Under the pieces are notes generated by a model. The model worked only from the letters and a program-made list of their open reading frames with translations. It was not told the origin of the DNA and made no database searches. DNA of 44,951 nt, taken from positions 1 to 44,951 of the forward strand of contig MHLM01000013.1 of the NCBI GenBank assembly GCA_001821395.1, given 5' to 3'. This stretch comes from Candidatus Lloydbacteria bacterium RIFCSPHIGHO2_02_FULL_50_18. GTDB lineage: Bacteria > Patescibacteriota > Minisyncoccia > Phycocordibacterales > UBA6899. Numbering within the stretch: position 1 is the first letter of the stretch; every line of letters begins with the position of its first letter. This document shows, one piece after another, positions 5,464-41,007 of this stretch. The position numbers and the translations under genes were made by a program.

Positions 5464-5769
5464 TATTTCACGTTGATTGACAATCAAGTCAAGAGATGAT
5501 ACAGTGTAATCCTCATAAAACTCCTCTCTCGAATGGTCGAACATTGAGAGACTTCCACAACAAATGGTAAGTCACAGAGGTATGTTGTGGGAAGTCTAGG
5601 ACATGCGCAAATGACGAATTTCATCGTTGCGAGGCCCCAGTGATTCGGTCGACATATGTGAATATGTCTTCCTCGTCACTCTCCCCGCGTCTCGATTTTC
5701 ATTCATTTTCGTCAGTCCGGTTATTTAATTACTGTTGCACTACGGTGTAACGGTCATAATCAAATTTAT

Positions 5770-8403: not shown

Positions 8404-9180
8404 CTAGAGATTCTCTTTTGGGTTGATCTCGCACACCTCATGGAATTGATTTTCCTCAATATGCTCAATGATCTCATCTTTGTCGTCAATGATCGCGAAG
8501 AGGTGCAAGTCTTTTTTTGCGATCGTTCCATGGACCTGTAGCATCGTCTTTTCCAGAAAATCCTTAAGCGGGTCCCAAAAATCCGAACCGACGAGCACAA
8601 TAGGCACACGGTGCATCTTTTTTGTTTGGATAAGCGTGATGATCTCAAAGAATTCATCAAGTGTTCCAAATCCTCCCGGGAAAAAAATATACGCCTCGGC
8701 CGAATACGACATCGTCGTCTTTCGCGCAAAGAAATAATAGAATGATAGCGAATCGGTCACGTAGGGATTGATGATCTGTTCATGCGGAAGTTCAATGTTC
8801 AAGCCGATCGAATCTCCTTCAGCGTCCATTGCGCCACGGTTTCCCGCTTCCATGATACCGGGTCCGCCGCCGGTGATAATAGCGTAGCCTCTTTTTGAAA
8901 GTTTGTATGCGAGCGCCCGAGCATCCTTGTAGTGTACGTTTTCCGATAGGAATCGCGCTGAGCCGTAGATCGTCACCGATCGTTGGTATTTATTGATGAA
9001 CGAAAGTCCGTCACTGAATTCTTTTGTTATGCGAGAGACACGTTTTTCGTTTGCCGCTTCTTGAAGTGACGCTCTCGTGTGCGGCTCACGCTCAATGTTT
9101 GTTTCGGGGATGTTAATTGCGGGAAGATCACTCGATCCTGTTGGTTTTTTTCCAGGTGGCATATACGGAGAGTATAGCAT
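8404..9180 (-). CDS. LOG family protein (TIGR00730, Rossmann-fold nucleotide/cytokinin riboside 5'-monophosphate phosphoribohydrolase-like)
   Basis: GGGPGIMEA ... PGGFGTLDE(F)FE core motifs. Start is chosen at ATG 9180 (MLYSPY); the frame is open further upstream but would overlap the divergent gene. Confidence 0.75.
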   Translation of the reverse strand: MLYSPYMPPGKKPTGSSDLPAINIPETNIEREPHTRASLQEAANEKRVSRITKEFSDGLSFINKYQRSVTIYGSARFLSENVHYKDARALAYKLSKRGYAIITGGGPGIMEAGNRGAMDAEGDSIGLNIELPHEQIINPYVTDSLSFYYFFARKTTMSYSAEAYIFFPGGFGTLDEFFEIITLIQTKKMHRVPIVLVGSDFWDPLKDFLEKTMLQVHGTIAKKDLHLFAIIDDKDEIIEHIEENQFHEVCEINPKENL

Positions 9181-9205
9181 TTTCACCAAGACTGTACATG
9201 GTATA

Positions 9206-9994
9206 ATGGCTGCTGTAATGGAATATTTGAAGCATGTGGGAAATCTCAGGGCATACATCCGAAGGGATAAGGAAGATGCGGCGACATTTTTTGCGAAAGA
9301 CATTTCGCGCAAACTGAAAGAATTTCGGGATGTAGAGCGGCGCGATGTATTATTCCTTTCGTCGGGAGGTTCAGCACTTACTGCGCTTGACCGCATCGAT
9401 GATGAGGTCATCGGTCCCTATCTCACCATTGGTATCTTTGACGAACGTTTTGACGGGCACGGAAAGTCAATCAATTATGCGCAATTACGAAAAACTGATT
9501 TTTACAGAAAAGCGGTTGCGCGGGGTTGTCGGCTTATCGATACCAGCACGCGCAGAGGAGAGAGCAAGGAAATGCTCGCCGATTTTTATGAGAATGAATT
9601 ACGCAGCTGGCGCGTTCGTCACCCTCGGGGGGCTATTATGGCGACGATGGGTGTCGCAGTGAACGGGCATACTGCAGGCATCATGCCGCACACTGAGGAT
9701 CCACAAAAATTTTCCCAGCTTTTTGAGCAAGAGCGATGGATCATTGCATACGATGCGAAAGAGAAGGACCCATTTCCCTTACGCGTTACCACGACGCTTA
9801 CTTTCCTCCGCCAGGTCGATCTCGTCGGTATCTTTGTGGTGGGAAAAGAAAAAGGAGCAATGTTCGGAAGGCTGATGAGTGGTGACGACGTGGCTGAGAT
9901 CCCCGGTCGCATTGTGAAGACCCTTCCTCGCGGCGCGATATATCTTGACGCAGCGCTCGTTGGGGCGGCAGGGTATGCGACTCCGGCAAAATAA
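9206..9994 (+). CDS. 6-phosphogluconolactonase / glucosamine-6-phosphate deaminase fold protein
   Basis: LSSGGSALTAL matches the LSGGSTP-like motif, and MGVAVNGHTAGIMP matches the GxGxDGHTAS-like motif of the Pgl/NagB family. The ATG at 9206 overlaps a TATAAT-like sequence. Confidence 0.6.
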   Translation: MAAVMEYLKHVGNLRAYIRRDKEDAATFFAKDISRKLKEFRDVERRDVLFLSSGGSALTALDRIDDEVIGPYLTIGIFDERFDGHGKSINYAQLRKTDFYRKAVARGCRLIDTSTRRGESKEMLADFYENELRSWRVRHPRGAIMATMGVAVNGHTAGIMPHTEDPQKFSQLFEQERWIIAYDAKEKDPFPLRVTTTLTFLRQVDLVGIFVVGKEKGAMFGRLMSGDDVAEIPGRIVKTLPRGAIYLDAALVGAAGYATPAK

Positions 9995-9999
9995 TTTCC

Positions 10000-11016
10000 A
10001 TGAAGCTCGAACGCATATTGCACATCTTCAGTTTCATCATCGCACCATGCGTTATTGGGGTGCTCAGTGCGCTTTTTTTTCTGCAAAGAGGGGCATTGCT
10101 TTTTCCAGTTCACCCAGTTACTCCGGTGGGGGAGCAATCAACGAGCACAACCTACGTCATAACCGCGCCGGTCTTTAGTCCACCCTCGCCACCCCTCGAT
10201 CCTTCAAGGAGCACAGCTATACGACAACTCATTCCGGATGTCATTGCGCCAACCTCCACTCCAGAGAAGACGGTGGTGACACCGGAACCGCTCATCATCT
10301 GGAAGGATGCCGCACCTGACACTTCGATCACGAACAATACAGCCACTGGCGTGTCTCTCGCATTGAACGAGAGCGATATCGTTCGCTTTACGAATGACGA
10401 ACGTGCAAGTGAGGGACTGCCGCCATTTTCGATGAATAGTAACCTTACTGCGATCGCGAGAGCAAAAGCGATCGACATGATCGAAAAACAGTACTTTGCA
10501 CACGTATCGCCGTCCGGTATCGATGTGGCAAAAATGTCAGAGTTTTATGGTTATCTCTACTTGAACATCGGAGAAAATTTAGCACTCGGTGACTTTGTTT
10601 CGAGTCGTGAAGTGGTAACAGGCTGGATGAATTCTCCGGGACATCGGGCAAATATCATGAATACGAGCTACAAAGAGATAGGTGTCGCCGCACTCGTGGG
10701 TACCTATGAAGGGCATACGGTTTGGTTCGCGGTGCAGGAATTCGGCCGTCCTCTTTCCGATTGCCCGTCGCCAGATCCGCTGCTTGATAAAAAGATCAGT
10801 ATTTTTGAAGAAGAGCTTACGAAGCTCGATGGGTCGCTTGATAGACTGAATACACAAATGGAAACTCCCGGCACGAGTGCCAAAGCCTATAATCTAATGG
10901 TCGATGATTTTAACACCATCGCCGAACTGTACAATAGTCTTCTCGCTACAACGAAGGATGCAATTCTTCGCTACAATGCGGAAGCCAAAAGATATAATGA
11001 TTGCGTCGGCTTATGA
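10000..11016 (+). CDS. membrane-anchored CAP/SCP (PR-1-like, YkwD family) domain protein with Pro/Thr-rich linker and C-terminal coiled-coil-like tail
   Basis: An N-terminal hydrophobic segment, then the CAP core NDERASEGLPP ... GENLA ... GWMNSPGHRANIMN ... YKEIGVA. Confidence 0.75.
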   Translation: MKLERILHIFSFIIAPCVIGVLSALFFLQRGALLFPVHPVTPVGEQSTSTTYVITAPVFSPPSPPLDPSRSTAIRQLIPDVIAPTSTPEKTVVTPEPLIIWKDAAPDTSITNNTATGVSLALNESDIVRFTNDERASEGLPPFSMNSNLTAIARAKAIDMIEKQYFAHVSPSGIDVAKMSEFYGYLYLNIGENLALGDFVSSREVVTGWMNSPGHRANIMNTSYKEIGVAALVGTYEGHTVWFAVQEFGRPLSDCPSPDPLLDKKISIFEEELTKLDGSLDRLNTQMETPGTSAKAYNLMVDDFNTIAELYNSLLATTKDAILRYNAEAKRYNDCVGL

Positions 11017-11178
11017 GCATGGTCGTGACTGGGGTGCTTTAGCGTACCGTCCTACCCGTTCTCGAACAAAACCATCGCACGCCAACTCGTGTAAATAGCA
11101 AATGACTTGCGCGCCGGTTGATTTTATGGGCTTATGGTATTAGGATACTTGCAGTGATGTTTTTTGAAAGGAATTCCG

Positions 11179-12129
11179 ATGAAAAGACCGATCGAGGTGA
11201 TCGGGGTTCCGTTTGCACAGGGCGGTAGTAAGGGTGGGTCTGCAAACGGACCTCGAGGGCTTATCGAAAATGGGCTGCTGGATTTTCTTGAGACAAATGG
11301 GCTTACGTCGACTTACACTGACGTGCAGGGGACAAGCATGTTCCCCGAAATATTCTCAGCCTCTCCGGTGCTCTCCGGACCCGTATGTTCTCATGATGCG
11401 GTTCTTGAGGTGGCGAAACTTGCCGGTGCGCGCGTATTCGCTGCGCATACGCTCGGGCGACTGCCGCTGGTGATCGGGGGTGATCATTCGATCTCGCTTG
11501 GTACGGTTCCGCAATTTCTCGATCCGGTATTCTCGCATGGGAGAAAGGTGGGGCTCATTTGGCTTGATGCGCATTATGATGCGCACACACCAAAGACGTC
11601 GCATTCGCACTTTGCGAACGGTTTCCCACTTGCCTCCGCGCTTGGATACGGAGAACGCACACTCGGTTGCTATGGGGCATTTGGTAGAGCCGCACAGCAT
11701 CGACGTTTACGATTTCGGCCTGAACATGTGTTGCATCTCGGTGCAGGAAAGAGCGATTGTGAACCTGAAGAACTCGCGCTGCTTCAGAAGCTCAATGTTA
11801 AGACCGTAACGATGACCGATGTCAATCGTGGCGGGTACAAGGTGTTGATTGATGCCCTTGATGCGCTTCTTTGTGAAGTTGACGATGTCATCTTCACCTT
11901 CGATCTTGATGCGATGCATAAAAAATTCGTCCCCGGTGTTTCCTTTCAGAGTACGGGTGGTTTGTTTCCGTGGCATGCATTCAAGATCGCGGATAGGATC
12001 GCAACTTCAGGTAAATTGCGCCAGATCGAGATCGTTGAATATAATCCTGATGCGGAGGAATATACGGACCTCGGATATCCCAAAACAGTTGATTTTGTTC
12101 TTTTCTTTCTTGAGCGGCTTCTTCACTGA
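11179..12129 (+). CDS. arginase/agmatinase (ureohydrolase) family enzyme, probably arginase
   Basis: GGDHSIS, DAHYDAHTP and the binuclear-Mn ligand pattern. It sits next to the ornithine aminotransferase and P5C dehydrogenase genes. AAAGGAA lies upstream of ATG 11179. Confidence 0.75.
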   Translation: MKRPIEVIGVPFAQGGSKGGSANGPRGLIENGLLDFLETNGLTSTYTDVQGTSMFPEIFSASPVLSGPVCSHDAVLEVAKLAGARVFAAHTLGRLPLVIGGDHSISLGTVPQFLDPVFSHGRKVGLIWLDAHYDAHTPKTSHSHFANGFPLASALGYGERTLGCYGAFGRAAQHRRLRFRPEHVLHLGAGKSDCEPEELALLQKLNVKTVTMTDVNRGGYKVLIDALDALLCEVDDVIFTFDLDAMHKKFVPGVSFQSTGGLFPWHAFKIADRIATSGKLRQIEIVEYNPDAEEYTDLGYPKTVDFVLFFLERLLH

Positions 12130-12142
12130 GTCAAACAAATAA

Positions 12143-12169
12143 CCCCATGCTAAGGCATGGGGTTTTTTT
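12143..12169. terminator. bidirectional rho-independent terminator (CCCCATGC-TAAG-GCATGGGG + T7)
   Basis: A perfect 8-bp stem flanked by an A-rich stretch on the left and a T-run on the right. It lies between the convergent arginase and aminotransferase genes. Confidence 0.85.
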
Positions 12170-13459
12170 CTACTCTTTCGGTAGGGTCCGCAGAGCGATC
12201 TCTGCAAACGTTTTACCGATAAGTTCCGCGAGGCGCTTCACTTCAGTTTCGGTGATGATGAGTGCCGGAGTGATGCGGATGACATTATGTGCATCCTTTG
12301 TCATAACACCATTTTTAAGCAGTTCATCGATCACCATGTGCGAGTCAACGCCTGGTGCAAGAACAATACCGATCATGAGTCCGCGACCGCGTACGAGCGG
12401 TGCGATCTTCGCAGCTCCACCACAGGACAATTCTTGTCTCAGTTGATGGAGCAGTGATGCACCCATCATTGCTGAACGAACGCAAAGCTTCTCGTCTTTG
12501 ATGATCGCAAGTGCCTCAAGAGCGATCGCCATTGCCGTCGTGTTGCCGCCGTGCGTTGAGCCATGGTCTCCGGGCGTGAACACCATGTGCTCGTCGTTCC
12601 CGAGAACCATTGCCACGGGATGCTTGCCCGCACCCAAGGTTTTTCCGATCACGACTAAGTCCGGTTTCACTCCTTCGTGCCATGAGGCAAGCAGGTATCC
12701 GGTGCGGCCGAGTCCGGCTTGGATCTCGTCTGCGCAAAAAATAACATTGTTCTTTTCGCACAGAAATGCACAGGCTTTCAGGTACCCCGGAGGAGGGATT
12801 CGTACACCCCCTTCACCTTGGATGGGCTCTACCAGAAAACCGACGATGGTCGGAGCACCGCTCTCTGCGTCCTCTTGCATCACCTTCGCAAAAGCACCAT
12901 AGTCCCCATATGGAACAGTGATGAATGCATCCGCAGCGTAGGGACCAAAGTTCTCGCGGTATGTGGGTTCACTGGAGAATCCGACAACAGTCGTCGTGCG
13001 ACCGTGAAAGTTCCCCTCACAGATGACGATACGGGCTTTACCCCGCTCGACGCTCTTTTTCGTGTATCCCCATTTGCGCATCAATTTGATTGCAGCCTCG
13101 ACCGCCTCAACCCCACCATTTGTGGTGAGCGCCTTGTCATAGCCAAATGCCTTTGTGCAGGCGTATTCAAGCATCGTTCCAAGCTGAGGTGTGGGGTGGA
13201 CGTTTGGCACGATACCGACGACACCCCAACCATCCTTGTCAACGGCGTTGAGTTTCCGAAGCAGTGCACAGATACGCGGATGGTTGTGCCCGAGACCGAC
13301 CGAGCCATAGCCGGATGCGGCGTCGATGTATTCCTTCCCGTCGGTATCTTTGACGTAGATGCCTTTTCCTTTTGCAAAACAGACCGATGATCTCGCGTAA
13401 TGTCTTGAGCCATAGTGGTCCATTTGTGCAAGCAGTTCCCCAGTACTCTTTTTGCTCAT
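12170..13459 (-). CDS. rocD: ornithine aminotransferase (class III PLP aminotransferase)
   Basis: ADEIQAGLGRTG and GKTLGAG (PLP lysine) motifs resemble OAT more than ArgD. The length is typical for the family. Confidence 0.8.
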   Translation of the reverse strand: MSKKSTGELLAQMDHYGSRHYARSSVCFAKGKGIYVKDTDGKEYIDAASGYGSVGLGHNHPRICALLRKLNAVDKDGWGVVGIVPNVHPTPQLGTMLEYACTKAFGYDKALTTNGGVEAVEAAIKLMRKWGYTKKSVERGKARIVICEGNFHGRTTTVVGFSSEPTYRENFGPYAADAFITVPYGDYGAFAKVMQEDAESGAPTIVGFLVEPIQGEGGVRIPPPGYLKACAFLCEKNNVIFCADEIQAGLGRTGYLLASWHEGVKPDLVVIGKTLGAGKHPVAMVLGNDEHMVFTPGDHGSTHGGNTTAMAIALEALAIIKDEKLCVRSAMMGASLLHQLRQELSCGGAAKIAPLVRGRGLMIGIVLAPGVDSHMVIDELLKNGVMTKDAHNVIRITPALIITETEVKRLAELIGKTFAEIALRTLPKE

Positions 13460-13637
13460 TTTTTCACTCCTTTAAACAACGGGTACTCCTTTCTCGTTCT
13501 ACCAGAACAAATGAGAGAGGGCAACCCCATATGAATGACAAGTTCAGCACTGTGGTTAAGCCAGATTTACCCTTTGACAGGTGGAAGGAAGAGCAGTAGG
13601 TTGAGGAAGGTTTTACAGCTCTTTGAAGGAGAAAGTA

Positions 13638-15362
13638 ATGAAGTTACCAACCAAGCGTGCATTTCGGAAAGAAGCTGATGTGGTGATGTCTGGTGAAAGT
13701 TATCCCGACTTTACAACCGGAGCAGTGAGGGAGCGCCTTATAGAGGCGCATCATGAAATTTGTTCGTGCTATCTGAGAAAAACGTTTCCTCATGTTTTGG
13801 CGGGAAAAGAATTTAATTCATCACTCACTACGTATGCGGATGTTAACCCATATTCTGGCTTCGCTTTGTGTCAGTTTCAGCGCTTTGATCCGACATGGGA
13901 CATCGGCAGTGCAATTGGTGATATCGAAAAGGCACAAGATGTCTGGCGCGAAACACCATGGAAGGTGCGGGCCGAATATCTCTATTCGCTTGCGCATGCA
14001 CTTATGAGCGAGAAGTGGACGTGGCGTTTCGTGTCGGCCCTGATGCTTGACACCGGAAAGAGTGCGGCTGAAGCATGGGGTGAGTACAACGAAGTGTATC
14101 GTTTTGTGCTGATCCATATTGGGTTTATGTTCAAACGATATACAGAAAACGACCAATTCAAATCGTGCGGACTTTCCGGTGATTATTTCGGCTACAGCTT
14201 CAAGGGTCGCGGTATTGGTCTTGTGGTCGCGCCGTTCAATTTTCCTGCAGCTATTCCCGTTCGCATGCTGACACTCATGCTGGCATTCGGCAACGTCGTG
14301 ATTTTGAAGGGCGCGACGACCGCATCGTTGGTGACCCGTGTCATCTTCGATGTGTGCGAAGAAGTACGGAAGGAGACGGGCATCGGCCCAGTGGGCTTGG
14401 TGAACTTTGCTCCGGGTTCCGGCGGAACTGCCGTGGATGCATTTCTCTCCGATCCTCGGCTTAAGATCGTCTCATTCACCGGAAGCTCGGAGGTCTGTGA
14501 GGCGATGATCAAGAAGCATCAGTTTTCTCCACGTACGGGCGGAAATCAGTTGACGATCGGCTCGGCGGAAACCGGCGGCGTGAACTGGGTCGTATTGCGC
14601 TACTTCCACGATCTCGATTGGTTCGTTTTGCAGTGCATTAAGGGCAACTTCGGTATCAGCGGGCAGAAATGCTCAACGACACGATTGGTATTTGTTCCCG
14701 AGGAACTCAAAGAAGATCTGCTTCACCGTCTCTTTGTGGCTTACGACAAGCTCATATACGGCAATGTCCTCGATGGTGCGGACTTGGGTCCCGTGATCGA
14801 TATGGCTGCAAAGAGAGAGATCGACAAAAAGATTGCATTCCTTGCGAATGGTTTCGCAGAGATTGTGTATCAGAAAACGATCACCCCTTCGCCGAGTGGT
14901 CAAGATGTCGCTCCAACGATTTTGCTTGCTGACAATGATGCAATTCGCAATAAGGTGGTAATGCAAACACTTCTCGACACCGAGATATTTGGTCCGGTCT
15001 TCACCTTGGTGCCATTTCGATCGATAGACGAGGTTCATGCATTGCGCCCGTCGATGGAATACGGTCTTACGGGTTCGTATTACGCCGAGCATCCTGAACG
15101 ACTTGCGGAAGGCATGATGTTCCTTCCGGCAGGGAATGCCTATGGCAATCGTCGTTCGACCGGTGCAACCGGCCCGGAAGAATTTGGCGGGCTCGGTGGC
15201 TCGAAGTCATCATACAACTCTGGACTCAAGGGATATGATGAGGTCGCGCTCTATGTGCAAAAGCGAACGCACTCTGCTGTCTATCCGAAGAGTTGGACGG
15301 AAAGAGAGAAACGCACGTTCCGCAGGAAAATGGAACTACATGGCGTTGCCGTGAAGTGGTAA
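13638..15362 (+). CDS. rocA: aldehyde dehydrogenase family, 1-pyrroline-5-carboxylate (glutamate semialdehyde) dehydrogenase type
   Basis: ALDH fold with catalytic Cys in QKCSTT and FTGSSEV. The length (~575 aa) and neighbourhood fit P5CDH. AAGGAG lies upstream of ATG 13638. Confidence 0.75.
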   Translation: MKLPTKRAFRKEADVVMSGESYPDFTTGAVRERLIEAHHEICSCYLRKTFPHVLAGKEFNSSLTTYADVNPYSGFALCQFQRFDPTWDIGSAIGDIEKAQDVWRETPWKVRAEYLYSLAHALMSEKWTWRFVSALMLDTGKSAAEAWGEYNEVYRFVLIHIGFMFKRYTENDQFKSCGLSGDYFGYSFKGRGIGLVVAPFNFPAAIPVRMLTLMLAFGNVVILKGATTASLVTRVIFDVCEEVRKETGIGPVGLVNFAPGSGGTAVDAFLSDPRLKIVSFTGSSEVCEAMIKKHQFSPRTGGNQLTIGSAETGGVNWVVLRYFHDLDWFVLQCIKGNFGISGQKCSTTRLVFVPEELKEDLLHRLFVAYDKLIYGNVLDGADLGPVIDMAAKREIDKKIAFLANGFAEIVYQKTITPSPSGQDVAPTILLADNDAIRNKVVMQTLLDTEIFGPVFTLVPFRSIDEVHALRPSMEYGLTGSYYAEHPERLAEGMMFLPAGNAYGNRRSTGATGPEEFGGLGGSKSSYNSGLKGYDEVALYVQKRTHSAVYPKSWTEREKRTFRRKMELHGVAVKW

Positions 15363-15417: not shown

Positions 15418-15518
15418 TTCATAATTATTACCCGTATCCCCTCATTTGAGTTTTTTGTCGTAAGAATATTTTGCAAGCAAGCATTTCTATATTTAAAGCC
15501 ATATTTTCACCCTTTTTT

Positions 15519-15537
15519 GTCAAGGTTTAACCTTGAC
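15519..15537. promoter_or_regulatory. 19-bp palindrome GTCAAGGTT-T-AACCTTGAC (9-1-9) overlapping a TTGACA box; copy 1 of a shared operator-like element
   Basis: Perfect inverted repeat. The extended context TTTTTGTCAAGGTTTAACCTTGACATTCATCG recurs at 29161-29193. Confidence 0.6.
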
Positions 15538-15638
15538 ATTCATCGTGCATGACCGCTTTTTTGTCTCGCTTCCTTTACTTATCATGAATACGATGTAGTT
15601 TGAAAGTAGCGTCATTCTTTCACAAAGGAGGTTCTATT

Positions 15639-29048: not shown

Positions 29049-29166
29049 CGTATCTCGCAGTAGACAGCGAGCACCCATGAAAGATCTCAGTACCAAGCGA
29101 CTGAGATTTTTTACACGATAAAATTTTTAGCTTCTTATATTTTAAGCCACAAAATCAGCACTTTTT

Positions 29167-29185
29167 GTTAAGGTTTAACCTTGAC
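29167..29185. promoter_or_regulatory. copy 2 of the 9-1-9 palindrome (GTTAAGGTT-T-AACCTTGAC) overlapping TTGACA; TATTTT -10 lies 17 bp downstream
   Basis: Context TTTTTGTTAAGGTTTAACCTTGACATTGATGG. TTGACA is at 29181-29186 and TATTTT at 29204-29209. Confidence 0.6.
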
Positions 29186-29334
29186 ATTGATGGGCGCAAT
29201 TTGTATTTTCGTCAGTAGAAGTAGTTGACAATGCAGTGTATTGTGTGCTACTATTAACAACAGAGAGGTAGTAGCATTAAGTTGCACATTGCCAATCGAC
29301 AAGAGTTTTTAAGATCAACTTTTTGGAGAAAAAA

Positions 29335-30483
29335 ATGGCACTCAGCCTGATCGGTGAGACACTCACCTTTGCACACGATGGTCAGTTACTCAATTTTTGC
29401 GTGTATGACCAGAATGAGCCGGAGGGTGACGATTTTGTCACTCGCTGCGAAAAGAAGAACAATGCGCTCCATTATGGTCATGCTTGGTTTGATGTGCAAA
29501 ATGGTTTTTGCACGTCGGAGGATATGTTCGCCGCAGCCAAGGAGTTGCGCGGCACTTATGCGCTCTTCTGCGATATGGACGCGCGTCAGCAGTCACAGTT
29601 CATATACAAGATGACGATGCATATCTGCGCGCTCATCGGCGTATCGGCGTGCGATTGGGAACCTTCGCAAGAATTCGTGCTGGATGCGATCCAAGACGAA
29701 CTCTCTGACAAAGATCTGAAAAAGGCCGCCTTGGAAGTTTACGTTCTCCCATGCGAGGAAGAGCCGGACCAACCAGTTGCCGGAAACGATTTCACAACGG
29801 ATCCGGATCTCATTCGCATTGCGCAGCAGAGCTCACGCTTGCGCGTCTTGCTGAATTACGACGAGGAGGATGCAAAAGAAGGAAGAAGTGCTCGTCGTGG
29901 CCTGTCGGTCAATGGTCGCAATCGCGCTTGTTTCTACTCCGGTCGCCGTGCGCTTTCGATCCGTCGTGATAGTGATGCACTCTTTTGTGCAGAAGACACA
30001 CGGGTCGGCTGTGACTGGGAAGCAATGTGCGAGGAGGTCGACAAGGATGGTGAAGGGGTGGTCACGGAGTTCCCGGATGAGTTTGATTTTGCGTACGAGG
30101 AGTACGCGAAAATGAAACGGTTGGGGGATGAGGAGTACACCCCAAAAAATGTGCGCGATGAGAGAGCATCTCGAGTCCGCATTGTGGACTCCTTTGACCC
30201 TTGGGACTTGCGTGATCGGGGCTACGGCTTCTACGATGCGTTAAATCGGAATTACCAGTGTGATTGCCCTGCATGCAGTGGCGACGATTGGTTCTCAATG
30301 CCAGAGATCATCGATGAAGATGCGGAGCAGCAACGTTTGATCGATCGCTTTGGCGATCAGGATGACTGGGACTCTTTCGTTGACTTTGGTCCTTCCGATC
30401 GTGAGATCGACGCGATCCACTTCGGTCACTCTTCTCGGTTGCAGCTTACCGGTCGCTATCGCAAGGCGGTCGCTCCGTTCTGA
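29335..30483 (+). CDS. hypothetical acidic, Cys-rich protein (382 aa)
   Basis: GGAGA lies upstream of the ATG. The protein is very rich in D/E, has 14 Cys including CDCPAC, and has no recognisable domain. Confidence 0.6.
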   Translation: MALSLIGETLTFAHDGQLLNFCVYDQNEPEGDDFVTRCEKKNNALHYGHAWFDVQNGFCTSEDMFAAAKELRGTYALFCDMDARQQSQFIYKMTMHICALIGVSACDWEPSQEFVLDAIQDELSDKDLKKAALEVYVLPCEEEPDQPVAGNDFTTDPDLIRIAQQSSRLRVLLNYDEEDAKEGRSARRGLSVNGRNRACFYSGRRALSIRRDSDALFCAEDTRVGCDWEAMCEEVDKDGEGVVTEFPDEFDFAYEEYAKMKRLGDEEYTPKNVRDERASRVRIVDSFDPWDLRDRGYGFYDALNRNYQCDCPACSGDDWFSMPEIIDEDAEQQRLIDRFGDQDDWDSFVDFGPSDREIDAIHFGHSSRLQLTGRYRKAVAPF

Positions 30484-30508
30484 TCTTTGTTCGATGTATC
30501 GCATTTAT

Positions 30509-30535
30509 GGACAGCCCAACGGCTGTCCATTTTTT
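30509..30535 (+). terminator. rho-independent terminator (GGACAGCC-CAAC-GGCTGTCC + T6)
   Basis: Perfect 8-bp stem followed by ATTTTTT. Confidence 0.85.
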
Positions 30536-30560
30536 ATTGCTGTATGTTATAATTTTTTTA

Positions 30561-31448
30561 ATGAAAGAACTTATCGACAACATTCAAAAGAGTATTTATG
30601 GGCCCGAACATTACCAAGCGATACTGACGCAGCCCCTCCGTGCGTCCTTCAAATATTTTGCCTCACTCGCGCTCTTGCTTACGGTCTTTTTGACGATCAT
30701 CTCATCGATCCCGCTCATTATGAATGCTAACGTTTTTGCGCATGAATTCCCGGCAAAGTTTTTTGCTTATTTTCCTGACGAACTGGAGGTAACCGTTGCC
30801 AGTGGTATCGTTTCATCGAATGTTGCTGAGCCTTATTTTCTTCCCATCCCGACCGAATTATCAGCCGCCATGAGCTCCAAAAAGGGGACGCTCACGAACA
30901 TCGCGGTCATTGATACGCTGACTCCGTTCTCATTGAATCAGTTCGCCGCATATAAGTCCGCGCTTTGGATCGGCCGCGATCAGTTGGTTTATATTGATGA
31001 TGGGGGGGCGATCAAGATCCAGCCGATAGAGAAGACGTTCAATTATGTATTGAACGAGGGGAAGCTCCGCGGGATCGAGTCTCGCATGTCTCCTTATTAT
31101 GCTTTTATCGGCCCGTTGATCGTTCTCGCTATCTTCCTTGTACTTACCATCGGCTTTGCGTCCAATATCGTTTATCTGCTTTTGGGCGCCCTCCTCATCA
31201 TGCTACTCGGGCGCATATTGAAGTTACGGTTAAGCTATGCAAAGGCGTACCAGATAGGACTGCACGCCATCACCCTCCCGCTTCTCATCGACGCCATGCT
31301 GGCGATGAGCAGTCTCGCCTTCATTCGTGTGCAATTTGCATCAACGATCATTATGCTTTTGATTGTGTATGTGAATCTCAGCACGAGAAAACAAACAAGC
31401 ACTATTGCTGCTACCCCCACCGTCTCCGACGATGCACCGGAATCCTAG
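30561..31448 (+). CDS. polytopic membrane protein, DUF1189-like by overall pattern
   Basis: The N-terminus (MKELIDNIQKSIYGPEHYQAIL...) and the transmembrane distribution resemble DUF1189 family proteins. The family assignment is from memory and is low-confidence. Confidence 0.5.
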   Translation: MKELIDNIQKSIYGPEHYQAILTQPLRASFKYFASLALLLTVFLTIISSIPLIMNANVFAHEFPAKFFAYFPDELEVTVASGIVSSNVAEPYFLPIPTELSAAMSSKKGTLTNIAVIDTLTPFSLNQFAAYKSALWIGRDQLVYIDDGGAIKIQPIEKTFNYVLNEGKLRGIESRMSPYYAFIGPLIVLAIFLVLTIGFASNIVYLLLGALLIMLLGRILKLRLSYAKAYQIGLHAITLPLLIDAMLAMSSLAFIRVQFASTIIMLLIVYVNLSTRKQTSTIAATPTVSDDAPES

Positions 31449-34360: not shown

Positions 34361-34486
34361 GGGTTTTGATCTTTTGGGCCCCCGCAGACGTATTGCTTGG
34401 TCCGATCGGCTTTGTGATCGGAATTCGTCGAGGGCACACGCGACCGCCGCTGGAAGCGGTCGCGTGTGCCCAAAAGATCAAAACCC
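34361..34486. repeat. nested inverted-repeat element: perfect 19-bp IR (GGGTTTTGATCTTTTGGGC ... GCCCAAAAGATCAAAACCC) enclosing a perfect 16-bp-stem hairpin (34432-34471)
   Basis: Both repeats were verified base by base. A small 7-bp hairpin at 34401-34422 lies between them. Possibly MITE-like or a structured RNA. Confidence 0.85.
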
Positions 34487-37609: not shown

Positions 37610-38098
37610 ATGTCGAAGCGCACACGAATGTTCGTTCTTCCGTCGCTCATTTTCATGTCGCTTTTTGCGTTTCTGCTGTTTGGTCACGTGCGGCAAACGA
37701 TACACGATCGTGTACTTTGTTCCCATGGAACCCATCTCTTACATCTTTCAGATCCGATCGTTGTCACCGTACTTCGAACACAGGAAGAACATCGTCGCGG
37801 ACTTTCAGGGAAGGAAGAGCTCCCTCCTGATGAAGGAGTGATCTTTGATTTTGGTGTAGTCGGACCTCAGCATTTTTGGATGAAGGATATGCGATTTTCA
37901 CTTGATATGATATTTCTTGACAGCGATTGGAGGGTGGTGAAAATCTTTTCGGCTGTGCACCCTGATTCATATCCGGATTCATTTGATTCTCCGGATGACA
38001 CGCGTTATGCGCTTGAGGTGACATCCGGCCTTGTTGCGAGAGAGCAGCTTACCGTTGGTACAGCATTGCGCATGCTTTCGTGCGAAGAAATTTATTGA
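37610..38098 (+). CDS. DUF192 (COG1430) family protein with N-terminal membrane anchor
   Basis: GLSGK...GVIFDFG...HFWMKDMRFSLDMIFLDSDWRVVKI...YALEVTSGL matches the DUF192 consensus pattern. Confidence 0.7.
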   Translation: MSKRTRMFVLPSLIFMSLFAFLLFGHVRQTIHDRVLCSHGTHLLHLSDPIVVTVLRTQEEHRRGLSGKEELPPDEGVIFDFGVVGPQHFWMKDMRFSLDMIFLDSDWRVVKIFSAVHPDSYPDSFDSPDDTRYALEVTSGLVAREQLTVGTALRMLSCEEIY

Positions 38099-40536
38099 TA
38101 GGAGGCGAGATAGTGCATCAGCGTTTCTCCGACGAGCGTTAGGCTATTTGCGCTGCAGTGTGAAGGTGTATCGTTTGTCGTATTGAACCAGGGCTCGTAA
38201 TCAAAGTCGATGACGAGAAAGGAGGGAATTCCTGCCGCGATAAGGGGAAGATGGTCGTCACCTATCTTGTGCTTCACGGAATGATCAAATACAAGCGGTG
38301 CGAGGGCCCCGCCGATGTCCCAGAAACGCGATTGCTCTTCTTTTGCGGCATTGTACGAATATGCCTCTTTAGCAATCCCAAGATCCTCATCGCAAACCAT
38401 ATCGAATAGCACTGCGTGGTCCGGTTTTCCGGCTAGGTATAGTGCTGGGTACATTGCGGCAAAATGGGTTGAACCGAGCGGCGTCCAATTCGGGTCACCG
38501 CCACCCAGCGCAGTCGCCCCTTCTTCCCCGTCAAAGAAGACGAAGTCGATGCCAAGCGTGCTCGAGGCATGATCGAGGGACAATGTCCGCGCCGCCTCAA
38601 GAAGCAGTGCGACGCCGGATGCGGAATTATTCGCTCCGGGCATATATGCGTTGGGATCTTTTTTATCACGATATGCGCGACTGATGCTGTCATAATGAGT
38701 TCCGAGAATGATTCTTTTTTTTGCTTCGGGATTATATCGGGCAATGATATTCGACAGGGGAATAGGTCGATTGTCGTCGGTCACATGCACCCACGAGTCA
38801 CGTGCCGCATCAATATGCAGGTCCTGCATTCGCTTGAGGAGAAGGTTGCCTAGTGCGTTATTTCCCTCCGAGCCGATCTCCCGCGAACCGAGCGCAACGA
38901 TCGTGCGGATGTCCGTCATCGCGTTTGCTCCTTCGAATTGTGTAAAACGTCCTCGTTGTGGTATCGATTCCTCCGCGTGCTGATCATTTTGGTCTGCAAT
39001 GAATCGCGTTACAAGGTGGTCGACCGGCGCGAAGTCGTCGGTCAGGATGTCATACTGCTCAAGTGATCGTCCGGCGATCGGAAAAATGTGTGAATTCAAG
39101 CTTGCGAGAAACGGATCGGTGCTGGTGCGGATGCGTTCCTCGATGCCCGGCATGAGTTGGTCTGCCATTCCGACAACAATGAAATTCTGTACCTGCGTGC
39201 TCGCGGGTGATTCCGCGGCAAAGACGTATACATAGGGAAAAACATCTTTCATCGTACGGAGCTCGGAAAAGAGGAGCGATTCATCGGACGTGGCCCCGGA
39301 ACCAATGATGTTTGCCATGAAGATGCCTTTTGGTGCAAGGTGTTCCTTTGCATTTTGAAAAAATTCTCTTGTGGTGAAATGCGTCGGGATCGAATAGAGA
39401 GAGAAATAGACATCACTAAAAATAAGATCATATCGGTCTTTGCTTTCACGAAGAAAGCGACGGCCGTCCATTGTGTGCGTTCTGATGGAGGTGGTTTCGG
39501 TAAGATCAAAATACTCTTTTGCGATCGATTCGAGTTCCGGTTCGATCTCTACGACATCGATCTGTGCGTTCGCTCGTTCCCCATGTATCGCTTTTGGAAT
39601 GGTATATATTCCTCCGCCGATCACGAGTGCACGAGCAAGCTCGGGGTTTGTGAAGCGGTACAAAGCATAATATTTTGTGTAGTCGAAGGTGAGATCTTTT
39701 CCGTCAAGAAAGATTGCGCCCGAGCCGCTTCGGTCTTGGAGAAAAAAACGAGCGGGCCGTCCCGCGTAGATAGAGTCAAGAACGGTGAGCTTTTCATAAA
39801 CACCGTCTTTCATATAACGTATGCGCGGATCGAGGTCTGCGTTCCTTGCGATTATGAATGTTGCAGTGATGGCGATGAGCAATAGCAGCAAAAAGAATAT
39901 GGCATCCCGACGTCTTGCTCCCGTAGTAGTTGAAACAAGCCCGCATCCTCCCAGAAGAACGATGAGCGTTGTCGTTCCGTAGAGGATGGCACTAATGCCA
40001 ATGGAGGGGATAAGGACGAATCCCGCAAGTAAGCTGCCGAGGATCGAGCCTGCAGTCGACCAGAAGAAGATATTGCCGCTCATGGTCCCCAATCCCATGT
40101 GGGGACGGAATTCATGTCCGAGTTTGATTGCGAACGGCGACAGCATGCCGAGGAGGTAACCGGGCATAAAAAAGAGCACCATTGACCAAATGAGCGGCCC
40201 GGTTCTGATGGAGAAGAGGCCGCTTGCGATGGGTAGGATCGTCAGTGAAAGGACGTACAGCACAAAGAGGCTGATACCGCCTTTGAATATCACATTGTAG
40301 AATTCTTGAAACGTTGGTTTTGCATCCGCTCGTATGCCGCCCTTCCAGTATCCGACAGAAAGTGCCGCAAGGATGACGCTGATCACCGACGAGACCGTAT
40401 AAATGGTGTTTCCATAAAAAGGCGACAGGATGCGTGTTGCGGTGATCTCGATCACGAGGATAGCGGCACCGGTCACAAAAACGATCGATTGCAGACGATA
40501 TTTATCCCACCACGCATAGAGTGAACCTTTTCTCAT
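38092..40536 (-). CDS. three-domain fusion: N-terminal polytopic membrane domain + spermidine synthase-like (aminopropyltransferase fold) domain + C-terminal M28 peptidase/glutaminyl-cyclase-like domain
   Basis: About 7 transmembrane segments. The middle domain carries VIGGGIYTIPKAI...DVVEIEPEL...YDLIFSDVYFS (spermidine synthase-like). The C-terminus carries GTHYDSI...PGANNSASGVALLLEAA...FVFFDGEEG (M28 fold, with Asn where the metal-binding Asp pair is expected). Confidence 0.75.
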   Translation of the reverse strand: MRKGSLYAWWDKYRLQSIVFVTGAAILVIEITATRILSPFYGNTIYTVSSVISVILAALSVGYWKGGIRADAKPTFQEFYNVIFKGGISLFVLYVLSLTILPIASGLFSIRTGPLIWSMVLFFMPGYLLGMLSPFAIKLGHEFRPHMGLGTMSGNIFFWSTAGSILGSLLAGFVLIPSIGISAILYGTTTLIVLLGGCGLVSTTTGARRRDAIFFLLLLLIAITATFIIARNADLDPRIRYMKDGVYEKLTVLDSIYAGRPARFFLQDRSGSGAIFLDGKDLTFDYTKYYALYRFTNPELARALVIGGGIYTIPKAIHGERANAQIDVVEIEPELESIAKEYFDLTETTSIRTHTMDGRRFLRESKDRYDLIFSDVYFSLYSIPTHFTTREFFQNAKEHLAPKGIFMANIIGSGATSDESLLFSELRTMKDVFPYVYVFAAESPASTQVQNFIVVGMADQLMPGIEERIRTSTDPFLASLNSHIFPIAGRSLEQYDILTDDFAPVDHLVTRFIADQNDQHAEESIPQRGRFTQFEGANAMTDIRTIVALGSREIGSEGNNALGNLLLKRMQDLHIDAARDSWVHVTDDNRPIPLSNIIARYNPEAKKRIILGTHYDSISRAYRDKKDPNAYMPGANNSASGVALLLEAARTLSLDHASSTLGIDFVFFDGEEGATALGGGDPNWTPLGSTHFAAMYPALYLAGKPDHAVLFDMVCDEDLGIAKEAYSYNAAKEEQSRFWDIGGALAPLVFDHSVKHKIGDDHLPLIAAGIPSFLVIDFDYEPWFNTTNDTPSHCSANSLTLVGETLMHYLASYQ

Positions 40537-40838: not shown

Positions 40839-41007
40839 GAGTCAGTCGGTTTGCCATGAGTTTCTCAAATGGATGAAATTCGAGACGCGGGGAAAGAGAC
40901 GAGGAAGACATATTCTTATATGGTGACCGAGTCGCAGGGGCTCCGCAACGAAGAAGTTCGCCATTTGAGAAATTCATATTATTAGGTTTATTATTCCCAC
41001 ATACATT

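Follow-up and report, generated by a model that had tools for sequence, protein, structure and literature searches.

What kind of protein is encoded by a strongly acidic 382-codon reading frame of an ultra-small bacterium, and how is its synthesis controlled? The question is raised by a locus of the window analysed here, a stretch of 44,951 nucleotides (nt) from Candidatus Lloydbacteria bacterium RIFCSPHIGHO2_02_FULL_50_18 (assembly GCA_001821395.1, contig MHLM01000013.1, positions 1 to 44,951 of the forward strand). An identical protein is recorded by NCBI as hypothetical, from Candidatus Lloydbacteria bacterium (RIFCSPHIGHO2_01_FULL), within the Parcubacteria of the Candidate Phyla Radiation (CPR). 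CPR bacteria have tiny genomes with many unannotated genes, and their transcription regulation is barely known. The predicted signals described below show the locus to be a self-contained, single-gene transcription unit, in which the htpX terminator, a palindromic unit, the promoter at 29225-29254, a leader of ~75 nt, the sequence GGAG, the open reading frame (ORF) of 382 amino acids (aa) and a terminator would follow each other. As a CPR transcription unit the locus is cleanly delimited, and its promoter is of the consensus extended −10 type. It also offers two candidate control elements, namely an invariant leader specific to this gene and a palindrome placed before several genes, those for ribosomal proteins among them. 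The features needed first are the following.

29335-30483, plus strand: coding sequence (CDS) of the 382-aa acidic protein (NCBI hypothetical protein, locus tag A2845_01145)
29325-29328, plus strand: Shine-Dalgarno sequence GGAG, 6 nt 5′ of ATG 29335
29225-29254, plus strand: predicted conserved sigma-70-type promoter, with the −35 TTGACA at 29225-29230, a 15-nt spacer and the extended −10 TGCTACTAT at 29246-29254
29262-29306, plus strand: conserved 5′ leader, with the near-invariant core AGCATTAAGTTGCACATTGCCAATCGACAAG at 29273-29303, present in all nine loci aligned

The reading frame starts at ATG 29335 and stops at 30483; the start given in a mechanical ORF list is TTG 29323. The sequence TGGAG around the Shine-Dalgarno is invariant in the nine loci, and the start context is also conserved. 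An initial annotation, made from the nucleotide sequence, had described a 382-aa ORF with a good Shine-Dalgarno whose product is extremely rich in Asp and Glu and carries 14 Cys including a CDCPAC cluster. This description is accurate for the window protein, which has 79 Asp+Glu and 43 Lys+Arg residues (net charge −36, pI 4.43), 14 Cys, and CDCPAC at residues 309-314 (30259-30276). Comparison of the CDS with a 62%-identical homologue (locus L004) gave 87, 78 and 141 differences at the three codon positions, and 70 codon changes are synonymous only. The dominance of changes at the third codon position is consistent with purifying selection. Judged from its conservation and substitution pattern, the ORF is a real gene under purifying selection.

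The protein has a small family. Six close homologues were found among 5.8 billion proteins by a word-indexed search, and when 1.84 billion cluster representatives were searched exhaustively by profile, 41 of them matched at E ≤ 0.001. Three loci were found among the 185,579 species genomes of GTDB (two in Lloydbacteria metagenome-assembled genomes (MAGs) and one in an unclassified bacterium), with a narrower alignment of this highly divergent family as the query. Members of at least 340 aa are all acidic, with net charges from −12 to −54. Profile hidden Markov model searches gave no Pfam or NCBIfam family for the 382-aa protein at E ≤ 1, and a Pfam match was found in none of the 39 family members scanned. 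The sole PHROGs match has E = 0.052 and PADLOC returned none. The PDB has no match by sequence or by profile, and no fold match was found in the PDB or BFVD. The sequence, profile and fold searches thus detected no signature of an enzyme or of a known family. That the product has no recognisable domain, as first noted, holds in all of them, and profile searches against Pfam, NCBIfam and the PDB, a check of the kind proposed at the time, gave no confident match to a known family. On the outcome of these searches, the family is an unannotated, narrowly distributed orphan of about 41 clusters without detectable relatives, lineage-restricted and confined to a narrow group of ultra-small groundwater bacteria. 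It could become a new Pfam entry, with a clear domain boundary (folded residues ~15-140, see below). CPR genomes often encode acidic proteins of orphan families, so the finding is useful without being surprising. The expression signals of the gene are likewise of ordinary kinds, and its leader and palindrome add further examples to element types already known.

An alignment was made of the regions upstream of the family gene in nine distinct loci, encoding proteins down to 26-33% identity with the window protein. TTGACA is invariant and is followed, in 9/9 loci, by a 14- or 15-nt spacer and an extended −10 TGCTAyAmT. Expressed by hexamers, the promoter reads TTGACA-N17/18-TA(C/T)(A/T)(A/C)T with a TGC extension before the −10. 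In the window the −35 TTGACA (29225) and the −10 hexamer TACTAT, with its TG extension, are spaced by 18 nt, and the conserved pattern is single against 0 expected by chance. On this conservation, the predicted sigma-70-type element at 29225-29254 is the true promoter of the acidic-protein gene, and transcription is predicted to start near 29261. A near-consensus promoter together with the Shine-Dalgarno suggests high expression. A different promoter had been chosen in the initial annotation:

29181-29209, plus strand: promoter-like site TTGACA-17-TATTTT, matching the consensus at 10/12 positions, whose −35 is the right arm of the palindrome described below

This TTGACA (29181-29186) with its TATTTT is present in the sequence but is not conserved, and in the orthologous region of L001, a Lloydbacteria MAG, the position equivalent to its −10 reads AAAGGA. 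A motif scan rates TTGACA(29225)-18-TACTAT equal to the 29181 site, and promoter-like matches in the region are barely above expectation (6 found vs 3.3 expected from shuffles).

About 10 nt past the predicted start begins the sequence AGCATTAAGTTGC-(N1-4)-CATTGCCAATCGA (29273-29299), which is nearly invariant in all loci. The leader is conserved even where the proteins are only 26-33% identical, and its core occurs once in the window. Relative to L001, the leader (29262-29306) is 87% identical and the CDS 51%. A leader peptide was ruled out because 2-nt indels break every reading frame; the indels are not multiples of three and the leader is thus non-coding. Rfam gave no match at the gathering score, with only noise at E > 1. 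RNAalifold proposed a small 5′ stem-loop, GAUnGGyA/UGCCnAUC, around GCA-loop-UGC, in which 90% of the cells are paired, with a covariation term of +0.44; an equally good result came from 80 of 500 shuffles. A leader RNA structure is accordingly compatible with the alignment, without being proven by it. Since the core ATTGCCAAT is palindromic as DNA too, it could equally be an operator located past the transcription start. We infer that the invariant leader serves the control of this gene specifically, whether as RNA or as such an operator.

The initial annotation had also described a leader of ~120 nt with a 7-bp hairpin:

29247-29275, plus strand: hairpin GCTACTA...TAGTAGC, whose 5′ arm coincides with the −10 box

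The hairpin does exist: GCTACTA (29247-29253) pairs with TAGTAGC (29269-29275), the pairing extends to 11 pairs, and its folding energy in the window is −11.7 kcal/mol (z = −2.78). Its conservation and the length of the leader did not hold. In 4/8 loci the hairpin is not better than shuffles, only 4-5 bp of (A)TGCT/AGCA(T) complementarity are conserved, and the leader counted from the conserved promoter has ~75 nt rather than 120. Because its 5′ arm is the −10 box, that arm would lie outside the RNA made from this promoter. The leader can be compared with the conserved leaders of highly expressed bacterial genes (ribosomal-protein leaders, and the stabiliser stem-loops of ompA and aprE), which are also short, gene-specific elements of the 5′ untranslated region. 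Like these, the present leader is more conserved than its CDS; its conserved element starts ~10 nt past the predicted 5′ terminus of the mRNA, and a small stem-loop there would agree with the alignment; it differs from them in having no Rfam family, in its non-significant covariation and in a core that could be a DNA operator. A duplication of the family promoter and leader was observed in L011 (7403-7517), and also in L009 and L012. The first copy in L011 (leader AGCATTAAGTTGCC...) precedes an unrelated 81-codon ORF located between htpX and the family gene, at a site where the gene caller put a minus-strand ORF instead.

The borders of the transcription unit are set by the following features.

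29084-29112, plus strand: intrinsic terminator of htpX (peptidase M48), consisting of ATCTCAGT, an 8-nt loop, ACTGAGAT and TTTTT, as read from the sequence
30507-30536, plus strand: intrinsic terminator of the acidic-protein gene, with a 10-bp stem (30507-30530) having 6 GC pairs, a CAAC loop and the T-run TTTTT
30545-31448, plus strand: DUF1189 membrane-protein gene, with the extended −10 TGTTATAAT at 30545-30553, 7 nt before ATG 30561

The htpX terminator separates the acidic-protein gene from the upstream operon. On the other side, the stem of the gene's own terminator is kept with compensatory changes in 7 loci. A strong terminator followed by a gene for a DUF1189-like membrane protein had been recognised from the start, and both assignments were confirmed, the second by Pfam (PF06691, 62.4 bits vs a cut-off of 28, E = 5.9e-17). 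The true start of the DUF1189 gene is ATG 30561, since 30507 falls inside the terminator stem. In six loci (window, L001, L004, L005, L006 and L007) the sequence TGnTATAAT is found 6-8 nt before this ATG and no Shine-Dalgarno is present. An extended −10 so close to the initiation codon implies a leaderless mRNA, which probably starts at ATG 30561. The DUF1189 gene lies downstream of the family gene in 7/7 loci with downstream sequence, while LemA, DUF2207 and HtpX precede the family gene where upstream sequence exists (HtpX in the window, L001, L005 and L011). In L001 a 422-aa ORF without known family (8452-9717) is inserted between htpX and the family gene; its candidacy as a family paralogue was dropped, the hhalign probability being 0.06. 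A search of the literature on DUF1189 and Lloydbacteria found no functional information.

Between the htpX terminator and the promoter lies a palindromic unit that is repeated in the window.

29136-29191, plus strand: copy 2 of the 56-nt repeated intergenic unit, with the palindrome TGTTAAGG-TTTAA-CCTTGACA at 29166-29186
15488-15543, plus strand: copy 1 of the 56-nt unit, with its palindrome at 15518-15538, upstream of the gene for a 230-aa multi-pass membrane protein (ATG 15639)

The palindrome of copy 2 (TGTTAAGGTTTAACCTTGACA, 29166-29186) overlaps the TTGACA at 29181, as initially reported. Copy 1 (TGTCAAGGTTTAACCTTGACA, 15518-15538) is perfect, and the two units have 82% identity over 56 nt (15488-15543 vs 29136-29191). 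With up to 3 mismatches the 21-mer is matched twice in 45 kb vs 0.15 expected, and 0/100 shuffles reach two matches. Copy 1 comes after the terminator of an aldehyde dehydrogenase gene. Metagenomes were scanned with the pattern AAGCCA-N14-18-GTYAAGG-N3-7-CCTTGAC; 96 stretches match it, most of them by chance and with other spacings, and only ~6 share the spacing and the extended similarity of the unit. One of these (L060, 1129-1706) carries the AAGCCA-palindrome unit upstream of a TTGACT-17-TAGTAT promoter, a ~150-nt leader and the S19-L22-S3-L16 operon, the unit being placed 54 bp before the −35 of the S19-L22-S3 promoter (genes confirmed by Pfam). In L014 and L083 the unit is upstream of a gene for a 104-aa membrane protein, and in L016 it is inverted, between CorA and another gene. 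The bare palindrome is also found between the family-gene terminator and the DUF1189 promoter in L006 (1593-1613), L010 (7015-7035) and L013 (2090-2110), and it was not found upstream of the family gene in L005, L010, L011 and L013. The initial idea of an operator dedicated to the acidic-protein gene has to be abandoned, since the palindrome also precedes S19-L22-S3, the 104-aa membrane protein gene and DUF1189 and is missing at four family loci. On these occurrences, it is a multi-gene upstream element, not a private operator of this gene.

The arms of the palindrome are nearly constant and its central 5 nt vary (TTTAA, AGAGT, CCTCG, TCTCG, TTGAA), a combination that suits sequence-specific binding of a dimeric protein more than it suits an RNA hairpin. 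In L010 both arms are changed symmetrically (AAAG/CTTT; TGTCAAAG...CTTTGACA), which agrees with either reading. The centre of the palindrome is 49, 70, 71 or 93 bp from the −35 in four orthologous loci, in steps of about two helical turns, and the helical phase is common to 6/7 measured sites; such phasing is suggestive, the loci being few and not independent, which weighs against leaning on it. Two other functions were rejected by eye: that of a minus-strand promoter, in view of −35/−10 spacings of 21-23 nt, and that of a terminator, no T-run following the hairpin on either strand. The palindrome is thus probably the putative site of a general, dimeric regulator acting on many promoters; if that is true, its target genes would be among the first regulons described in Parcubacteria. 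As in CRP-type class I activator sites and REP-like palindromes, the element is an inverted repeat, here of 21 bp with 8-bp arms and a 5-bp centre; it precedes the −35 of several unrelated promoters by 38-93 bp and recurs in intergenic DNA. It differs from CRP-type sites in that no cognate regulator was found: no gene for a helix-turn-helix regulator or other transcription factor is present among the large ORFs of the window. We know of no operator consensus that matches TGTCAAGG-N5-CCTTGACA.

The unit might alternatively be a selfish or structural repeat of the repetitive extragenic palindromic (REP) or miniature inverted-repeat transposable element (MITE) type without regulatory role, control being exerted by the promoter and leader. 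REP-type repeats have many extragenic palindromic copies per genome, often together with a REP-associated tyrosine transposase (RAYT). Several extragenic copies, each between a terminator and the next promoter, the occurrence of both orientations relative to genes (L016) and the conserved flank AAGCCA-N16/17 outside the palindrome would be expected of such a repeat, whereas the conservation of the arms across diverged genomes while the centre varies, and the symmetric arm change in L010, would not. The shift of the −35 spacing by ~21-23 bp fits a protein site facing RNA polymerase, and the window has 2 copies only in 45 kb. We consider this origin rather unlikely.

What, then, might the product do? 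Its predicted architecture has two parts.

29377-29754, plus strand: predicted folded helical bundle, codons ~15-140 (AlphaFold2), with the DWEPSxEFVLDAI motif and the conserved C79 and C98
29755-30480, plus strand: acidic low-confidence tail, codons 141-382, with an Arg-rich patch, CDCPAC and the basic C-terminal SSRLQLTGRYR

Structure prediction had been proposed together with the profile searches, and it was informative for the amino-terminal part only. AlphaFold2 with 6 sequences gave an uninformative model (pLDDT 36), while an alignment of 39 sequences yielded a helical bundle at residues ~15-140, with mean pLDDT of 85-98 in the 10-residue blocks spanning residues 71-140; blocks beyond residue 140 mostly have pLDDT of 39-69, and this tail is probably disordered. 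The best family motif, (I)C..IGV...DWEPSdEFvLDAI, is located within the folded part. Other bundles, including MLLE domains, which bind short linear motifs, resemble it in being small and all-helical, over 60-80 aligned residues. The Arg-rich patch covers residues 181-211. In the 33 full-length members the last 25 residues have a mean net charge of +3.9, against −2.8 per 25 residues elsewhere, and the family ends in the motif SS-R-x-R-x-T-G-R-Y-R. Acidic-Trp motifs are enriched in the tail throughout the family: of 258 Trp residues, 134 have Asp or Glu next to them, vs 96.7 ± 7.9 in shuffled sequences.

The product would thus combine a helical N-terminal domain of ~125 residues with a polyanionic tail of ~240 residues that AlphaFold2 is unable to fold. 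Most likely it is non-enzymatic, and we propose that it may be a cytoplasmic polyanionic interaction hub or decoy, in which the N-terminal domain would give specificity and the multivalent acidic-aromatic tail would engage basic partners, e.g., nucleic-acid-binding or ribosomal proteins. The tail itself could be the target of the basic C-terminus and the Arg-rich patch, through folding back, or these could touch membrane or RNA; the gene would be controlled through its leader. The closest known architecture is that of the RNA polymerase delta subunit (RpoE of Bacillus and other Firmicutes), which has a small helical N-terminal domain of the HARE-HTH type and a long tail rich in Asp and Glu. 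The delta subunit is abundant and non-enzymatic, and its disordered tail is regarded as a nucleic-acid mimic. The likeness appears to be one of architecture only: the window protein has no Pfam match, HARE-HTH included, and no fold match, and it is about twice as long, with additional Cys motifs, an Arg-rich patch and a basic C-terminus. A DNA or RNA mimic, also among the first suggestions, would display surface charges patterned like the phosphate backbone and bind a partner that itself binds nucleic acids; the net charge of −36 and the predicted disorder are the features that bear on this idea. Taken as a whole, the combination of high expression, a hub or decoy role and control through the leader is held tentatively, at somewhat less than even confidence, and with far less for any specific partner. 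Several points weigh against it. The hub or decoy role is proposed, with low confidence, from composition and architecture alone, and the low pLDDT of the tail could in part reflect a shallow, gappy alignment, not disorder. Statistical support for an RNA structure in the leader was not found (80/500 shuffles). The near-invariant C98, the frequent C79 and the presence of CxCxxC in about half of the members could mean that a metal site is central, and the DUF1189 adjacency in 7/7 loci could indicate a membrane-linked role.

The metal reading in its original form is that of a metal- or redox-active Cys-rich protein, binding Zn, Fe-S or another metal via its Cys including CDCPAC, under a dedicated operator. 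The 14 Cys had been taken as the defining trait of the protein. They do not define the family, in which full-length members have from 4 to 18 Cys and CxCxxC is found in 15/33 and absent from 18/33. The only widely conserved Cys are C98 (26/34 aligned members) and C79 (22/30), which count in favour of a metal site; C22 and C38 are retained within one subgroup, and 8/14 Cys of the window protein are poorly conserved. C309, C311 and C314 of the CDCPAC cluster do not vary within the 6 closest homologues. The spacing in C-x-C-x-x-C is similar to that of metallothioneins or zinc knuckles, and the three-Cys spacing of CDCPAC is shared with the bacterial metallothioneins SmtA/BmtA. The protein differs from these in having no match to their family and in carrying the motif, itself present in under half of the acidic family, within an unstructured acidic region predicted with low confidence. 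The searches above found no metal-binding family or fold match, and the operator is not dedicated. A metal or redox function seems unlikely.

We regard as similarly improbable that the protein is a peripheral partner or regulator of the membrane module formed by LemA, DUF2207, HtpX and DUF1189, held at the membrane through a C-terminus that is basic and in part amphipathic. The gene order is in its favour, with DUF1189 constantly downstream and HtpX upstream in the four loci named above, as is the net positive C-terminus, to which several members add hydrophobic or basic stretches, e.g., RRMLTSIAMLRI. Against it, the genes belong to separate transcription units, with terminators on both sides and a DUF1189 promoter of its own, and gene order within one narrow clade may be due to inheritance alone. 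Moreover, an unrelated 422-aa ORF intervenes between htpX and the family gene in L001, and DUF1189 is widespread without the acidic family. An equally small chance is given to a more ambitious reading that joins a new family-specific leader element (bound by the acidic protein itself or a conserved factor), a new class of abundant CPR polyanionic regulators and a TGTCAAGG-N5-CCTTGACA global regulon, which would include the ribosomal-protein operon and be bound on one helix face by a Lloydbacteria transcription factor. The weakest alternative, that the frame is open by chance or in decay, with conserved non-coding elements that serve some other purpose, could appeal to the absence of a family annotation and to a homologue (P0005) that is split or N-terminally truncated, and is effectively refuted by the 41 matching cluster representatives, the third-position bias of the substitutions, the conserved Shine-Dalgarno and start context and the confidently predicted N-terminal domain.

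Further elements lie elsewhere in the window. A ~112-nt repeat with 81% identity occupies two intergenic regions, 5597-5708 (plus strand) and 40867-40978 (minus strand); a DEAD-box helicase gene follows one copy at a distance of 60 nt, and the other is ~330 nt upstream of a minus-strand gene coding an 814-aa spermidine-synthase/M28 protein. The repeat is predicted to form a long, imperfect hairpin, in which 4 pairs differ between the copies in a compensatory way; Rfam has no match for it, and it may be a structured RNA or act in cis. A perfect 40-nt palindrome (TATTATCTTAACCTATGCTA / TAGCATAGGTTAAGATAATA) at 1167-1206 separates a plus-strand ORF (383-1015) from minus-strand ORFs and could terminate transcription in both directions. 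At 34361-34486, a 25-nt inverted repeat, 92% complementary and with arms 76 nt apart, lies upstream of a glycogen-phosphorylase-like gene (ATG 34566). Finally, a group of polyamine/arginine-related genes, unrelated to the acidic-protein gene, is found at 8404-15362 and 38092-40536, coding LOG/lysine-decarboxylase-like and arginase-family proteins, a class-III aminotransferase, an aldehyde dehydrogenase and the spermidine-synthase/M28 fusion.

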